DNA of 64,000 nucleotides from Propionivibrio dicarboxylicus (GCA_945902805.1 CAMDMZ010000016.1:27420-91419), one strand, 5' to 3'. Positions 1,344 to 63,776 are shown, numbered from the stretch's first letter. The notes: generated by a model not told the origin, from the letters alone. Made by a program: numbers and translations.

Positions 1344-1369
1344 CGCCGTCCCGCCAGCACCGACTTTTT
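1344..1369 (+). repeat. dispersed 26-nt repeat copy R1 (CGCCGTCCCGCCAGCACCGACTTTTT)
   Basis: Exact consensus. Lies between the convergent egtD stop and the senA-like stop; its T-run overlaps the TAA of the minus-strand gene. Confidence 0.85.
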
Positions 1370-2534
1370 AGAGCATGCAGCTACGGAATCCGGTATGCAC
1401 GTCATTGCGCTCCGGCGTGAAGTAATTGCGATAACGCGGATGCGCCATGCGCGGATCGGTCGCGCGACTAGCGCCTTTCAACACGTAGCGATGCTCTTCA
1501 AAACCAAAGCGCGAATAGTCGCGGTAGGGATGGGCAACAAAGCCGGCGAAGGGCGCAAAGCGGCTCGACGTCCATTCCCAGACTTCGCCCCAGGCGAAAT
1601 TCGGCTGGGTCAGCGCGGCACATTCCCACTCGGCCTCGGTCGGCAGGCGACGATTCGCCCAACGGCACCAGGCCTCGGCCTCGTGCCAGCTCACATGGAC
1701 GGCGGCGGTATCGAGATCGATCACCTCCCAGGCACCGAAGCGCATGGCCTGCCAGACGCCCCGCTCCCTGCGCACATAGCGCGGAACGGCGACGGCACCC
1801 ACATCAACGGCGGGCAGGAAGCGGCGCCACGTTACCGGCACGCTATCGATGGCGAACTCGGCCAGGGGCACGTCATGGGCGAGCAGTTCATTGTCGAACG
1901 CGAAGTCGGGACCGTCATGTCCCAACCGCCAGCCAGTCGCCGGAACCGCAATATCAGTCGCCAAGGGCAACGGGCGCTGCCACGGACGCAGGTGCGCAGG
2001 CAGCGGAATGTCGAGTGCCTGCGCCATATAGACGGCGGCCTCGGCGTGCATGTCTTCGTGGAACAGCGCGAGGCGATAGAAATACAAGGCGTCCGACCCC
2101 ACCTGGCCCACCGGCTCATGCGCCAGCAAGGCCAGCGTTTCGGCCAGGCTGGCATCGAGATAGGCTTTTGTCGCCGCCAGATTCGGCAGCGGCAGGCTCC
2201 AGCGTTTTTCGTGCGCGATCAGACTGGAGTTATAGAGCGCGTCGGCGCCAGCCATGCGGCCCTCGGGACGAAAGTGTTCGGGATCGCACGCCAAGCCCAA
2301 ACCACGCTGTTGATTGCGGGCAATCCAGATGTCGTAAAACCAGGCGACATGACCGACTTCCCAGCGCGGCGGATTGAATTGCGTGCTGTACGGAATCACC
2401 AAGTCCGCGCCCAGTTTGGCGACGTAGGCATCGAGCAGATCCAGCGTGCGGCGGCGGGCATCCTGCAGCGCGGTGGCAAGAAAAGCGGCGTTGCTACCGC
2501 GAGCGAGACGGGCGAGTGAAAAGTCAGTAGTCAT
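1368..2534 (-). CDS. EgtB/SUMF1-family non-heme iron sulfoxide/selenoxide synthase, SenA-like
   Basis: DinB-like N-terminus with His ligands (EVGHVAWF; FHEDMHAE = H-x3-H-x-E) and an FGE-sulfatase fold (RLPTEAEWE, VWEWT). Start set at ATG 2534, which has GAGG 8 nt upstream; the ORF-track start at 2612 looks like an extension. Adjacent to senB/senC-like genes. Confidence 0.7.
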   Translation of the reverse strand: MTTDFSLARLARGSNAAFLATALQDARRRTLDLLDAYVAKLGADLVIPYSTQFNPPRWEVGHVAWFYDIWIARNQQRGLGLACDPEHFRPEGRMAGADALYNSSLIAHEKRWSLPLPNLAATKAYLDASLAETLALLAHEPVGQVGSDALYFYRLALFHEDMHAEAAVYMAQALDIPLPAHLRPWQRPLPLATDIAVPATGWRLGHDGPDFAFDNELLAHDVPLAEFAIDSVPVTWRRFLPAVDVGAVAVPRYVRRERGVWQAMRFGAWEVIDLDTAAVHVSWHEAEAWCRWANRRLPTEAEWECAALTQPNFAWGEVWEWTSSRFAPFAGFVAHPYRDYSRFGFEEHRYVLKGASRATDPRMAHPRYRNYFTPERNDVHTGFRSCML

Positions 2535-3543
2535 GAAACAAACCTCAACGAAAAATGGTGGGCAACAACTTGTCATTGTCACCCCGGCGCTGGCCGATGC
2601 CAATAATGGCAACTGGCAAACGGCCTGGCGCTGGCAGCGCTTTCTTTCGCCACTTTACCCGACTCGGCTGGTCAAGGCCTGGCCCGATGAACGCGCCGCT
2701 GACGATACGCTGATGATCGCCCTGCACGCGCGGCGCTCGGCCGATTCCATCGCTGCCTGGCACGCCCGGCATGGCAGCGACCGTCTCGCCGTTGTGCTGA
2801 CCGGTACCGACTTGTACCGCGATATCCGGCACGACGCGAAGGCACAACGTTCGCTGGCGCTGGCGCGGGCATTGGTGGTATTGCAGGAGTGTGCGCCGCA
2901 ATCGCTGCCAGAAGCGCTACGCGGCAAAGCCCGCGTCATCTTTCAATCAACCACCACCCGCCAGACCTTGCCCAAATCGCCGCACCGTCTGCGCGCCGTG
3001 ATGGTCGGCCATTTACGTGACGAAAAGTCGCCCAAGACTTTATTCGCAGCCGCCCGCCAGTTGGCGTCACACCCGGCCATTCATATCGATCATATCGGTG
3101 AAGCGCTCGATCCGGCGCTTGGTGCCGCCGCGCGTGCCACCATGGCCGTCGCCCCCAACTATCGCTGGCTGGGCGGCTTGCCACACGCCGAGGTGCGGCG
3201 ACGCATCCAGCGCGCCCACGTGTTAATTCACGCCAGCCGCATGGAAGGCGGCGCCCATGTGGTCATGGAGGCTGTCGCCAGCGGTACGCCCGTGCTGGCC
3301 TCGGCGATTGACGGCAATATCGGCATGCTGGGCGCCGACTACGCGGGCTATTTTCCCTGCGGTGATTCGGCGGCACTGGCAGCACTGATTCTGCGTTGCC
3401 ACGACGGTCACATGCAACCGGATGGCACAACTCTACTGGACCAGTTGGCGGCGCAATGCCGCGATCGCGCGCCCCTGTTCGAGCCGACGAGCGAGCGAAA
3501 CGCACTGCACCGTCTGGTCAATGAATTGCTTGGAGAGCATTGA
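2533..3543 (+). CDS. GT-B glycosyltransferase-like protein, SenB-like selenosugar synthase candidate
   Basis: The first in-frame ATG before the conserved N-terminus LVIVTPALADANNGNWQTAWRW is at 2533. GT4-like SRMEGGAHVVMEA motif. Stop abuts the SelD-fusion start (TGAATG). Confidence 0.65.
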   Translation: MKQTSTKNGGQQLVIVTPALADANNGNWQTAWRWQRFLSPLYPTRLVKAWPDERAADDTLMIALHARRSADSIAAWHARHGSDRLAVVLTGTDLYRDIRHDAKAQRSLALARALVVLQECAPQSLPEALRGKARVIFQSTTTRQTLPKSPHRLRAVMVGHLRDEKSPKTLFAAARQLASHPAIHIDHIGEALDPALGAAARATMAVAPNYRWLGGLPHAEVRRRIQRAHVLIHASRMEGGAHVVMEAVASGTPVLASAIDGNIGMLGADYAGYFPCGDSAALAALILRCHDGHMQPDGTTLLDQLAAQCRDRAPLFEPTSERNALHRLVNELLGEH

Positions 3544-61547: not shown

Positions 61548-63716
61548 ATGAGCAACGGAGGAAAATGTCCCGTCATGCACGGCGGAGTGACATCCGCGAA
61601 TATGTTGAATATGGATTGGTGGCCGAAGGCCCTGAACCTCGACATCCTGCACCAGCACGACACGAAGACCAACCCGCTGGGGGTAGGCTTCAACTATCGT
61701 GACGAACTCAAGAAGCTCGACATCGAAGCATTGAAGCGTGACGTCAAGGCGCTGATGACCAACAGCCAGGACTGGTGGCCGGCCGACTGGGGCCATTACG
61801 GCGGCCTGATGATCCGCATGGCCTGGCACTCCGCGGGCACCTACCGCATCGCGGATGGCCGCGGCGGCGGCGGCACGGGAAACCAGCGTTTCGCGCCGAT
61901 CAACTCCTGGCCCGACAACGCCAACCTCGACAAGGCGCGTCGCCTACTCTGGCCGATCAAGAAGAAGTACGGCAACAGGATTTCGTGGGCCGACCTGATC
62001 CTCCTCGCCGGCACGATGGCCTACGAGTCGATGGGTCTGAAGACCTTCGGTTTTGCCTTTGGCCGCGAGGATATTTGGCATCCCGAGAAGGACACTTACT
62101 GGGGTGCCGAGAAGGAATGGCTCGCCCCCAGCGGTGGCATCAACAGCCGCTACTCCGGCGAACGCGATCTGGAAAACCCGCTCGCTGCCGTGATGATGGG
62201 CCTGATCTACGTGAACCCCGAAGGCGTGGACGGAAAGCCCGACCCGTTCAAGACCGCTCGCGATGTGCGCATCACCTTCGAGCGCATGGCGATGAACGAT
62301 GAAGAGACCGTGGCGCTCACCGCCGGCGGCCACACCGTCGGCAAGGCACACGGCAACGGTAGCGCCGCCAATCTTGGCGCTGCTCCGGAAGGGGCGGACA
62401 TCGAGGAACAGGGCCTCGGCTGGAACAACCACACATCCCGCGGCATCGGCCGCGATACGGTGACCAGCGGCATCGAAGGCGCATGGACGACCTACCCGAT
62501 GAAATGGAATACCGGCAAGGGCAGCTACTTCGACCTGCTGCTCAACCACGACTGGGAGCTCAGGAAGAGCCCGGCCGGCGCCTGGCAGTGGGAGCCGGTC
62601 AACATCAAGGAAGAAGACAAGCCGGTGGATGCCGAGAATCCGTCGGTGCGCTGCAACCCGATGATGACCGATGCCGACATGGCAATGAAGATGGACCCGG
62701 ACTACCGCAAGATCTCCGACCGCTTTTTCAAGGACCCGGCCGCTTTCGAAGCCGCCTTCGCCCGCGCCTGGTTCAAGCTGACCCACCGCGACATGGGCCC
62801 AAAGGCGCGGTACATCGGCCCGGATGTACCCAAGGAAGACTTGATCTGGCAGGACCCGGTGCCCGCCGGCCGCAAGGATTACGACGTCACTGCCGTCAAG
62901 GCGAAGATCGCCGCCAGCGGCTTGAGCATCGGCGAGATGGTCGCTACCGCCTGGGACAGCGCACGCACTTTCCGGGGCTCGGATAAACGGGGTGGAGCGA
63001 ATGGCGCGCGCATCCGCCTCGCGCCGCAGAAGGACTGGGAAGGCAACGAACCAGCGCGCCTCGCCAGGGTGCTGGCGGTCTATGAAAGGATCGCCGCCGA
63101 AACGGGCGCCAGTGTGGCTGACGTGATCGTGCTGGCCGGCAACGTGGGCGTCGAGCAGGCGGCCAAGGCAGCGGGATTCGACATCACCGTGCCCTTCGCG
63201 CCGGGTCGCGGCGACGCCACGGCCGAACAGACGGATGCCGAATCCTTCGACGTACTTGAACCGCTCGCCGACGGCTTCCGCAACTGGCTGAAGAAGGATT
63301 ACGTCGTGCAGCCCGAGGAACTCCTACTCGACCGCGCCCAGTTGATGCGCCTCACCGCCTGCGAGATGACGGCGCTCATCGGTGGTATGCGCGTCATCGG
63401 CACCAACCAAAGCGGCACGAAGCACGGCATGCTGACCGATCGTGTCGGCGCCCTGACCAACGACTTCTTCGTCAACCTCACCGACATGGCCTACACGTGG
63501 AAACCGTCCGGCAAGAACCTCTACGAGATCCGCCACCGCAAAACTGGTGCCGTGAAGTGGACGGCGACTCGCGTTGATCTGGTGTTCGGCTCCAACTCGA
63601 TCCTGCGTGCCTATGCCGAAGTCTACGCGCAGGACGACAGCAAAGAGAAGTTCGTCAATGACTTCGTCGCCGCCTGGACGAAGGTGATGAACGCCGACCG
63701 CTTCGACGTGAAGTAA
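61548..63716 (+). CDS. katG: catalase-peroxidase
   Basis: 722 aa. [13 protein letters not shown]-terminus, [11 protein letters not shown] and [16 protein letters not shown] motifs. AAAGGAG SD upstream. Confidence 0.95.
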
Positions 63717-63750
63717 GACCAGACTGACTGGCGGGCAGCGCGCTACGGTG

Positions 63751-63776
63751 CGCCGTCCTGCCAGCGCCGACTTTTT
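63751..63776 (+). repeat. dispersed repeat copy R14
   Basis: CGCCGTCCTGCCAGCGCCGACTTTTT, 34 nt after the katG stop. Confidence 0.85.

Follow-up and report, generated by a model that had tools for sequence, protein, structure and literature searches.

A dispersed 25-nt word in the window

The DNA considered here is a 64,000-nt stretch from Propionivibrio dicarboxylicus (GCA_945902805.1 CAMDMZ010000016.1:27420-91419), the whole of which we refer to as the window, and its gene content is that of ordinary chromosomal housekeeping DNA. On the basis of Pfam matches it holds egtD, an egtB-like gene, a glycosyltransferase gene and a SelD-fusion gene; a group-4 hydrogenase cluster; pilS and pilR; the genes for PEPCK and malic enzyme, and ppc; hemDXY, hemF, purE and folD; and iorAB, ahpCF and katG. 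Scattered among these genes are 15 copies of a non-palindromic 25-nt word, CGCCGTCCYGCCAGCRCCGACTTTT, eight on the plus and seven on the minus strand with the two strands interleaved. This word is a candidate uptake sequence, of the kind known in Neisseriaceae as DNA uptake sequences (DUS) and in Pasteurellaceae as uptake signal sequences (USS).

A preliminary description of the window had listed 14 copies of a repeat of about 26 nt. Using its consensus, we searched the window at up to three mismatches and then relaxed the search to seven. The stricter search returned 14 matches, compared with none in 100 dinucleotide-preserving shuffles, and the frequency is thus above that expected from composition. 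All of the listed copies exist, with coordinates right to within 1 nt; the 14 matches include one at 42325..42349 (minus strand) that had been missed, and a copy listed as partial at 27246 is present but occupies 27240..27264 (plus strand) with five mismatches. Since this degenerate copy is the only further match brought in by relaxing to seven mismatches (the class of six to seven mismatches is empty and the next-best match has more than seven), the family is a discrete one.

The boundaries of the word were taken from a logo of 242 copies from the window and related genomes, in which information rises from about zero to more than 1.5 bits at position 2 and is about zero again past position 25. 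Because the information starts and stops this sharply and the flanks are random, the unit is exactly 25 nt; the dispersed unit first described is real, but its 26th letter, a T, is specific to the window genome and lies outside. Dropping one ascertained copy per locus left 144 copies for an unbiased profile, where positions 2-6 (GCCGT), 11-12 (CC) and 17-24 (CCGACTTT) are near-invariant and positions 1, 7-10, 13-16 and 25 are softer. If position 16 is G, the word can be read as the hexamers GCCGTC, GCCAGC and GCCGAC, followed by TTTT. Independent half-sites could be ruled out, as the halves are essentially never found alone.

Folding of both strands of the word gave no hairpin or dyad symmetry. 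Minimum free energies ranged from 0 to -3.9 kcal/mol and did not improve on those of shuffled sequences for either strand, and the C-rich strand folded worse than its own shuffles; Rfam and tRNA scans of the window returned no match. The 90-nt flanks of the window copies have no mutual similarity, no terminal inverted repeats, target duplications or conserved flanks were found around the copies, and the flanks in the 242-copy logo are random. The absence of internal dyad symmetry, and with it the view that the word is neither a repeat of the REP/BIME type nor by itself a terminator, was therefore upheld, as was the view that it is not a miniature inverted-repeat transposable element (MITE).

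By site, three of the window copies are in sense and in frame within genes, two are antisense at gene termini and ten are intergenic. The three in-frame copies, a class already noted in the preliminary description, use one shared frame, R-x-x-(A/T)-S-(T/A)-D-F: the copy at 9841..9865 (minus, two mismatches) encodes HRLASTDF in the group-4 hydrogenase large-subunit gene, that at 17900..17924 (plus, no mismatches over 25 nt) RRPASTDF in a VTT/pyridine-nucleotide-disulfide oxidoreductase gene, and that at 42325..42349 (three mismatches) RRTTSADF in a 208-aa thioredoxin-like open reading frame (ORF). The antisense copies lie inside the last ~18 codons of hemY (46786..46810, minus, two to three mismatches) and across the last six sense codons and stop of iorB and the first three codons of folD (53822..53846, plus, one mismatch).

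Most of the intergenic copies are found 0-60 nt past a stop codon, in either orientation to transcription. The copy at 1344..1368 (plus, no mismatches) lies in a 40-nt spacer that separates the converging stop codons of egtD (377-1327, plus) and the egtB-like gene (1368-2612, minus), and that at 25226..25250 (plus, two mismatches) abuts, in antisense, the PEPCK stop codon at 25251; in both cases the T-run touches a minus-strand stop codon, as had been reported. The copies at 5851..5875 (plus, three mismatches; 27 nt past the stop of the Pyr_redox/SelD-like fusion gene) and 30753..30777 (minus, no mismatches; 8 nt past the stop of a D-Ala-D-Ala carboxypeptidase gene) are in convergent regions. 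At 25226 and 30753 separate terminator-like hairpins adjoin the word, sitting beside it and not inside it. Three further copies follow stop codons at somewhat greater distances: 51475..51499 (minus, no mismatches) lies 39 nt past the hemF stop and 39 nt ahead of the start of a FIST gene, 59948..59972 (minus, three mismatches) lies 59 nt past the ahpF stop and is antisense to transcription, and 63751..63775 (plus, no mismatches) lies 34 nt past the katG stop, in sense. The copy at 37579..37603 (plus, three mismatches) falls between the stop (37542) of an exoprotein gene and the start (~37614) of a probable ShlB-type transporter gene. Two copies are in divergent intergenic regions, namely 56457..56481 (minus, three mismatches), between iorA and a radical-SAM gene, and the degenerate copy at 27240..27264, between PEPCK and maeB, in which all five mismatches fall in positions 1-8. 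The copies are a mean of 4458 nt apart (coefficient of variation 0.41, smallest gap 2014 nt), a spacing that simulation found to be more even than random (P ~2e-4).

Orientation, reading frame and origin of the copies

For the full set of 242 copies, coding and intergenic calls were made with our own codon-usage gene caller, which was trained on Pfam-verified genes and called 90% of bases coding. Copies that are intergenic or overlap a gene end make up 44% of the set compared with 12.9% of bases, a 3.4-fold enrichment, and intergenic copies lie at a median of 32 nt past the nearest stop codon. Orientation is close to balanced at every level considered: 117 copies are on the plus and 125 on the minus strand, coding copies are sense in 61 cases and antisense in 74, and intergenic copies are sense with respect to the upstream gene in 37 cases and antisense in 30. 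There is also no polarity, since neighboring copies share orientation in 72/145 cases and are opposed in the other 73/145. Reading-frame use, on the other hand, is strongly unequal. Sense copies encode AVPPAPTF (35 copies), RRPASxDF (18) or PSRQRRL (8) and antisense copies KVGAGGTA (48), KSxLAGR (23) or KSRxWRDG (3), a range from 48 down to 3. Checks for frame bias and for proximity to gene ends, which had been recommended at the outset, thus both gave positive results.

Comparison with homologs at three coding sites indicates that coding copies were created by substitution and not by insertion. The most informative of these is in egtD. In the motif-bearing 3.05-Mb chromosome OW818671.1 this gene has an in-frame copy (CRLASADF) where the window gene has NQLAGTNF, and the DNA alignment is gap-free; there is no indel at the site among 120 EgtD homologs. 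The commonest peptide among these homologs, NRLAGTDF, is already a near-match, the intermediates NRLASTDF, NRLAGADF and CRLAGADF are all represented, and CRLASADF itself occurs in five sequences. The amino-acid replacements needed are N to C, G to S and T to A. When the 25 nt of DNA at this site are aligned by codon, six genomes differ from the motif at 12, 10, 8, 7, 5 and 2 positions. The same pattern of amino-acid replacement is described for USS in Haemophilus proteomes (PMC2817400). At the second site, the copy at the iorB stop and folD start replaces non-motif sequence of the same length in the related locus L118 (related loci are given our L numbers), and at the third, the hydrogenase copy HRLASTDF aligns without indels to P. 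furiosus MBH (6CFW_L) and T. thermophilus Nqo4 (2FUG_4).

Lake Mendota metagenomes supplied the nearest relatives of the window, L115-L117, at 86-90% nucleotide identity. Copies are kept at 4/4 orthologous sites in L115, and the two members of each pair differ in their internal mismatches; the orthologue of 51475 has two mismatches, that of 56457 has mismatches different from those in the window, and that of 59948 has the same GAGTTG deviation. In the two variable spacers (the 51475 copy is in one of them), conservation is higher in the motif than in the flanking DNA, where identity is only ~50% and indels are present. Motif is also kept at orthologous sites in locus pairs with 72-88% flank identity, an observation that we down-weight because both loci of each pair were chosen for containing the motif. 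A proposed orthology between the 42325 copy and a copy in L050 was ruled out, as the 208-aa gene is absent from L050, whose copy is independent and intergenic.

The preliminary description had proposed a comparison with related genomes, and for intergenic copies this gives a less clear picture of origin. The egtD/egtB spacer is 39-40 nt in the window, where it contains the motif, and in L237, where the motif is decayed; in L234, L235 and L236 the spacer is 1-10 nt and motif-free. The decayed copy (L237:10968-10992, GCA_050330075.1) has five mismatches, is orthologous to window 1344 and lies on a contig that is otherwise motif-free over 21 kb; it may be what is left of a system since lost from this lineage, or may have come in as a fragment from a lineage that bears the motif. 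L115 has an extra copy (L115:15641-15665), past a histidine-kinase stop, exactly where a three-gene indel begins relative to the window (~47691). The break in homology there takes in the opening bases of the motif (GGACGCC|GCCGTCC...), and the three genes that L115 has in addition are an epimerase gene, a GntR regulator gene and a kinase-like gene.

Distribution among related genomes

An exact-pattern scan with one genome per species found the motif in at least 113 stretches from at least 49 species-level genomes. Among the matches listed, nearly all are labelled Rhodocyclaceae, Sulfuritalea, Sulfurisoma, Sterolibacteriaceae or 'Methyloversatilis' metagenome-assembled genomes (MAGs), the habitats being those of freshwater, groundwater and wastewater Rhodocyclaceae; also among them are the chromosome OW818671.1 and 'Sulfuritalea sp.' MAGs binned from the same Lake Mendota metagenomes that supplied the closest relatives of the window. 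The window organism itself would probably belong in or near Sulfuritalea. The word is almost identical across these genomes and varies at positions 1, 8, 9 and 16. Position 1 differs between genomes (C, T or A), and position 16 is G in most genomes and A in 10/15 window copies. Unbiased motif density in the window, L115 and L235 is 0.23-0.25 per kb, and incidental copies in the 113 loci occur at 0.14-0.16 per kb, which by extrapolation would give ~450-1000 copies in a genome of 3-4 Mb.

Six neighboring lineages, sampled over 12-22 kb each, contained no motif copy even at six or seven mismatches. These are L118 and L119/L120 (FolD 90-91% identical to that of the window), Denitratisoma sp. DHT3 (CP020914), Georgfuchsia toluolica and GCA_029980345.1 (PEPCK 83-87% identical) and L236 (EgtD 79% identical). 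As the housekeeping proteins of these lineages are as similar to those of the window as are the proteins of some motif-bearing genomes, the word marks a particular clade. Repeat and seed-and-extend searches of five of the lineages (all but L236) found no other dispersed 24-mer, and with it no other 'dialect', under conditions where positive controls recovered the motif easily. The relatives examined at the PEPCK region, which contributed three of the motif-free lineages, reach 88% protein identity at most and, none being above this, gave no fine-scale data on intergenic gain and loss. Local tandem repeats within the gene downstream of PEPCK in Denitratisoma sp. DHT3 (L231, ~12400-12600) and GCA_029980345.1 (L233, ~14640-14700) are unrelated to the motif.

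One motif-bearing locus has an unusual structure. In L138:629-2123 (IMGVR_UViG_3300009945_000063) a 316-bp unit is tandemly repeated 4.7 times at 91% identity, and each of the units has a single motif copy, all in one orientation. Next to the array is an ORF whose translation, judged by eye, begins with an integron-type tyrosine recombinase-like N-terminus, and the unit ends resemble attC-like sites (GTTAGGC / TAAC). Duplication of an integron cassette in which the motif is present by chance may explain the array.

Several other features of the window deserve mention. The genes at 377-5823 (egtD; an EgtB-like FGE-sulfatase/DinB gene on the minus strand; a group-1 glycosyltransferase gene; and a fusion of pyridine-nucleotide-disulfide oxidoreductase with a selenophosphate-synthetase-like AIRS domain) resemble a biosynthetic cluster of the selenoneine/ergothioneine type (the sen cluster, SenA/SenB/SenC). 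The same arrangement is found in L235 and L237, and the window has a second EgtB-like gene at 60094-61386. A group-4 membrane-bound hydrogenase cluster (formate-hydrogenlyase / hydrogenase-4-like) occupies 7337-16680 on the minus strand, flanked by methyltransferase and GGDEF genes, and the cluster accounts for a strong AT skew (0.25) at 12-16 kb. At 33700-39317 there is a two-partner-secretion (TPS) pair, in which the gene for a 1280-aa exoprotein with a TPS domain at its N-terminus and a caspase (Peptidase_C14) domain at its C-terminus precedes that for a ShlB/FhaC-type transporter. In L050 the syntenic region lacks the block 30839-39393 and has the carboxypeptidase gene next to ppc, and so the block may have been acquired as an island.

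A candidate uptake sequence and its alternatives

The explanation that we favor, and whose chances of being right we put at about even, is that the 25-nt word is a DNA-uptake-enhancing sequence, of the DUS/USS kind, in a clade of Sulfuritalea/Sulfurisoma-type Rhodocyclaceae. Our reasoning starts from what was observed directly, namely how the word is distributed, that coding copies originate by substitution, that the word is restricted to one clade and that it has neither structure nor polarity nor a link to the direction of transcription, and from these observations we infer uptake, a receptor and molecular drive. In this scenario a receptor on the cell surface (the most plausible candidates being a minor pilin of the type IV pilus or another competence protein) would bind double-stranded DNA carrying the word; pilus retraction would pull this DNA into the periplasm and the DNA would then recombine with the chromosome. 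DNA with a better match would be taken up more often, such that match-improving substitutions would spread by molecular drive and damaging ones would be replaced. Copies would be expected to pile up where they are tolerated, that is, just past stop codons, in other intergenic DNA and in frames that give an acceptable peptide, on either strand and at about one per typical uptake fragment.

The preliminary description had already noted behavior like that of DUS and USS, and in this it was right for all of the sequence-level traits examined except one. The word is over-represented; it occurs in both orientations, within genes (with a frame bias) and between them; it is enriched at gene ends; coding copies originate by point substitution; and the word is common to related species, with variants, and absent from sampled neighbors. 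The exception is the arrangement of copies as inverted pairs forming terminators, a trait that is typical of uptake sequences and not strictly defining. With regard to machinery, the window encodes the type IV pilus regulators PilS (a 6TM_PilS histidine kinase) and PilR (a sigma-54 activator) at 19485-22417, and motif-bearing loci L083 and L105 encode a PilA-like pilin and a GspH-domain minor pilin. Type IV pili are therefore plausibly present, this being evidence of a generic sort. A pilS/pilR pair is also found near PEPCK in the motif-free L231-L233, and so the pair does not track the motif.

There is considerable resemblance to the DUS of Neisseriaceae (AT-DUS ATGCCGTCTGAA and its dialects, receptor ComP). 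Both words are non-palindromic and over-represented on both strands, both occur in and between genes with a frame bias and enrichment in permissive regions near gene ends, and both are common to related species, with dialect-like variants, in betaproteobacteria with type IV pili. Even the first hexamer of the motif, GCCGTC, is that with which DUS begin, and ~40% of copies, having T at position 8, extend this to GCCGTCT. This match could be a coincidence; more speculatively, it could reflect ancestry shared with Neisseria DUS and ComP within the Betaproteobacteria. The motif differs in its length (25 nt vs 10-12 nt), its density (~1 per 4-7 kb vs ~1 per kb) and its lack of inverted-pair terminators, and its uptake role is proposed from sequence. 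It is not itself a DUS dialect. The dialects are 10-12-mers with a conserved CTG core and a GCCGTCTGAA-like sequence (PMC3630211), and the motif has no TGAA end and no CTG core in register, GCCGTC(T) being all that is held in common while the other 18 nt are unrelated.

The likeness to the USS of Pasteurellaceae (Hin-USS AAGTGCGGT and Apl-USS ACAAGCGGT, with AT-rich flanks, ~29 bp) is in the similar footprint, in a GC-rich core joined to an A/T tract and in the way copies arise, since both words form by point mutation with co-evolution of the encoded peptides, and both have many coding copies on either strand. USS are reportedly evenly spaced. The reverse complement of the motif begins AAAAGTCGGT, which is loosely like AAAGTGCGGT. 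In contrast to USS, which have a 9-nt core and weak flanks, all 25 positions of the motif are strongly specified; the host clade is unrelated, the motif density is lower and there are no terminator pairs. Point-mutation origin and peptide co-evolution of USS are treated in two earlier studies (Findlay & Redfield 2009, PMC2817400; Redfield et al. 2006, PMC1626085). The surface receptor in Neisseria is ComP, and ComN is predicted to have this role in Pasteurellaceae.

REP/BIME, ERIC, Correia and other MITE-type repeats are, like the motif, short, clade-specific and dispersed in intergenic DNA near gene ends. Unlike them, the motif is without dyad symmetry, terminal inverted repeats or target duplications, and it is found in frame inside genes, having been made there by substitution. 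We therefore ruled out REP/BIME (no hairpin-forming palindrome) and a MITE or small insertion element (random flanks, and coding copies that replace sequence of equal length). An intrinsic terminator was ruled out in the same way (no hairpin, mixed orientation to transcription).

Our literature search, which included Rhodocyclales, found no paper with this word or on uptake sequences in these genera. In that literature such a combination of features is described only for Neisseriaceae DUS and Pasteurellaceae USS, and a 2025 survey takes the complete set to consist of these two families (bioRxiv 10.1101/2025.10.24.684340). We tentatively suggest, with a little less than even confidence, that the word represents a third, independently evolved family of uptake sequences. 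Such a family would be without precedent in free-living environmental bacteria, and its word would far exceed the others in length and information content.

A number of observations weigh against the uptake explanation. The word has 25 nt, with high information at almost every position, compared with cores of 9-12 nt in DUS and USS, and its density is ~4-5 times below that in Neisseria or Haemophilus. The inverted-repeat terminator arrangement, which holds about half of known DUS/USS (bioRxiv 10.1101/2025.10.24.684340), is missing: there are no abutting inverted motif pairs, and opposite-strand pairs within 160 nt account for 3/145 neighbor pairs. Even spacing is seen in the window only, 37/145 neighbor distances in 8-kb loci being below 1 kb, and the gene caller behind the coding, intergenic and frame counts is crude. 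Incidental copies on viral-classified contigs occur at 0.086 per kb vs 0.157 per kb for host DNA, a comparison that is ambiguous, as such contigs often represent prophages or fragments of host DNA; unless many of these do, the viral density is above what pure uptake drive predicts. Finally, the difference between egtD/egtB spacers is an indel of ~30 nt and not a set of substitutions.

The main rival, which we consider unlikely on balance, is that an abundant clade-specific chromosomal protein with an intracellular role (nucleoid organization, a self-DNA mark for a nuclease/helicase or defence system, or global regulation, for example) binds the word sequence-specifically, and that selection and not uptake bias keeps the copies. 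A word with 25 bp specified nearly throughout, made up of three GCCNNC hexamers and a T-tract, does look like a composite protein site, and the even spacing in the window and the retention of copies at orthologous sites at 72-88% flank identity (an ascertainment-biased comparison) are both in keeping with such a role. So is the density on viral contigs, about half that of the host, as if phages mimic a host mark, and clade restriction would follow from the gain or loss of one protein. However, the sites are not concentrated at promoters, being mostly just past stops, inside genes and in convergent spacers, and an extrapolated several hundred copies, in both orientations and with amino-acid replacements accepted, would be unusual for nucleoid or regulatory sites such as parS, matS, SlmA and Noc sites. 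This explanation also names no candidate protein.

We regard as improbable the idea that the word is a miniature mobile or templated element copied by an enzyme such as a transposase, a recombinase or an activity performing reverse-transcriptase-like short-patch conversion. Its very sharp edges and uniformly high conservation over 25 nt might be read in this way, as might the integron-like array with its 316-bp motif-containing unit, the L115 copy exactly at the breakpoint of the three-gene indel and the egtD/egtB spacer motif on its ~30-nt indel. The last of these, however, also includes ~15 nt of non-motif sequence, and both indel cases appear to fit allele replacement by recombination while being compatible with insertion as well. 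Replacement without change in length at three coding sites, one of them with graded intermediates, is difficult to reconcile with such an element, as a 25-nt insertion would break reading frames; nor were terminal repeats, target duplications or conserved flanks found, or an associated enzyme gene in the window. Two further explanations are largely excluded by the orientation data. A function in transcription or in the RNA itself, whether as a 3'-UTR (untranslated region) element, factor-dependent terminator or processing site, was suggested by the many copies 0-60 nt past stop codons and by the terminal T-run, and the preliminary description had offered a termination or processing factor as an alternative. 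We consider this very improbable given the mixed orientation to the upstream gene; moreover, there is no hairpin, folding is no better than for shuffles, Rfam gave no match, genes contain more than half of the copies, in both orientations, and separate terminator hairpins stand beside at least two copies. Least probable of all is a motif polar with respect to replication or recombination, of the Chi, KOPS or architecture-imparting type. The word is over-represented and non-palindromic, as such a motif would be, but known polar motifs are 5-8 nt, eight plus and seven minus copies are interleaved within one 64-kb stretch, and neighbors share orientation in 72/145 cases, as for random orientation, where ~62% would be expected at a strand skew of 75%.

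The origin and evolutionary purpose of sequence-specific DNA uptake are long-standing questions, and to our knowledge the phenomenon has been documented in only two families of host-associated bacteria. Should the word prove to be a chromosomal protein site instead, a 25-bp site present in hundreds of copies and forcing amino-acid changes in housekeeping proteins would in itself constitute an unusual genome-organizing system. If it is an uptake sequence, its length would imply a receptor with an extended or multimeric footprint, and sister genomes with and without the motif would provide a natural contrast for finding that receptor. The graded egtD series would allow models of molecular drive and selection to be compared. 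The word could also be used as a tool for transforming these hard-to-manipulate bacteria and as a lineage marker in metagenomes. Above all, a third system, residing in abundant environmental bacteria, using a much longer word and having close relatives that apparently lack it, would show that self-preferring transformation is not peculiar to mucosal pathogens.

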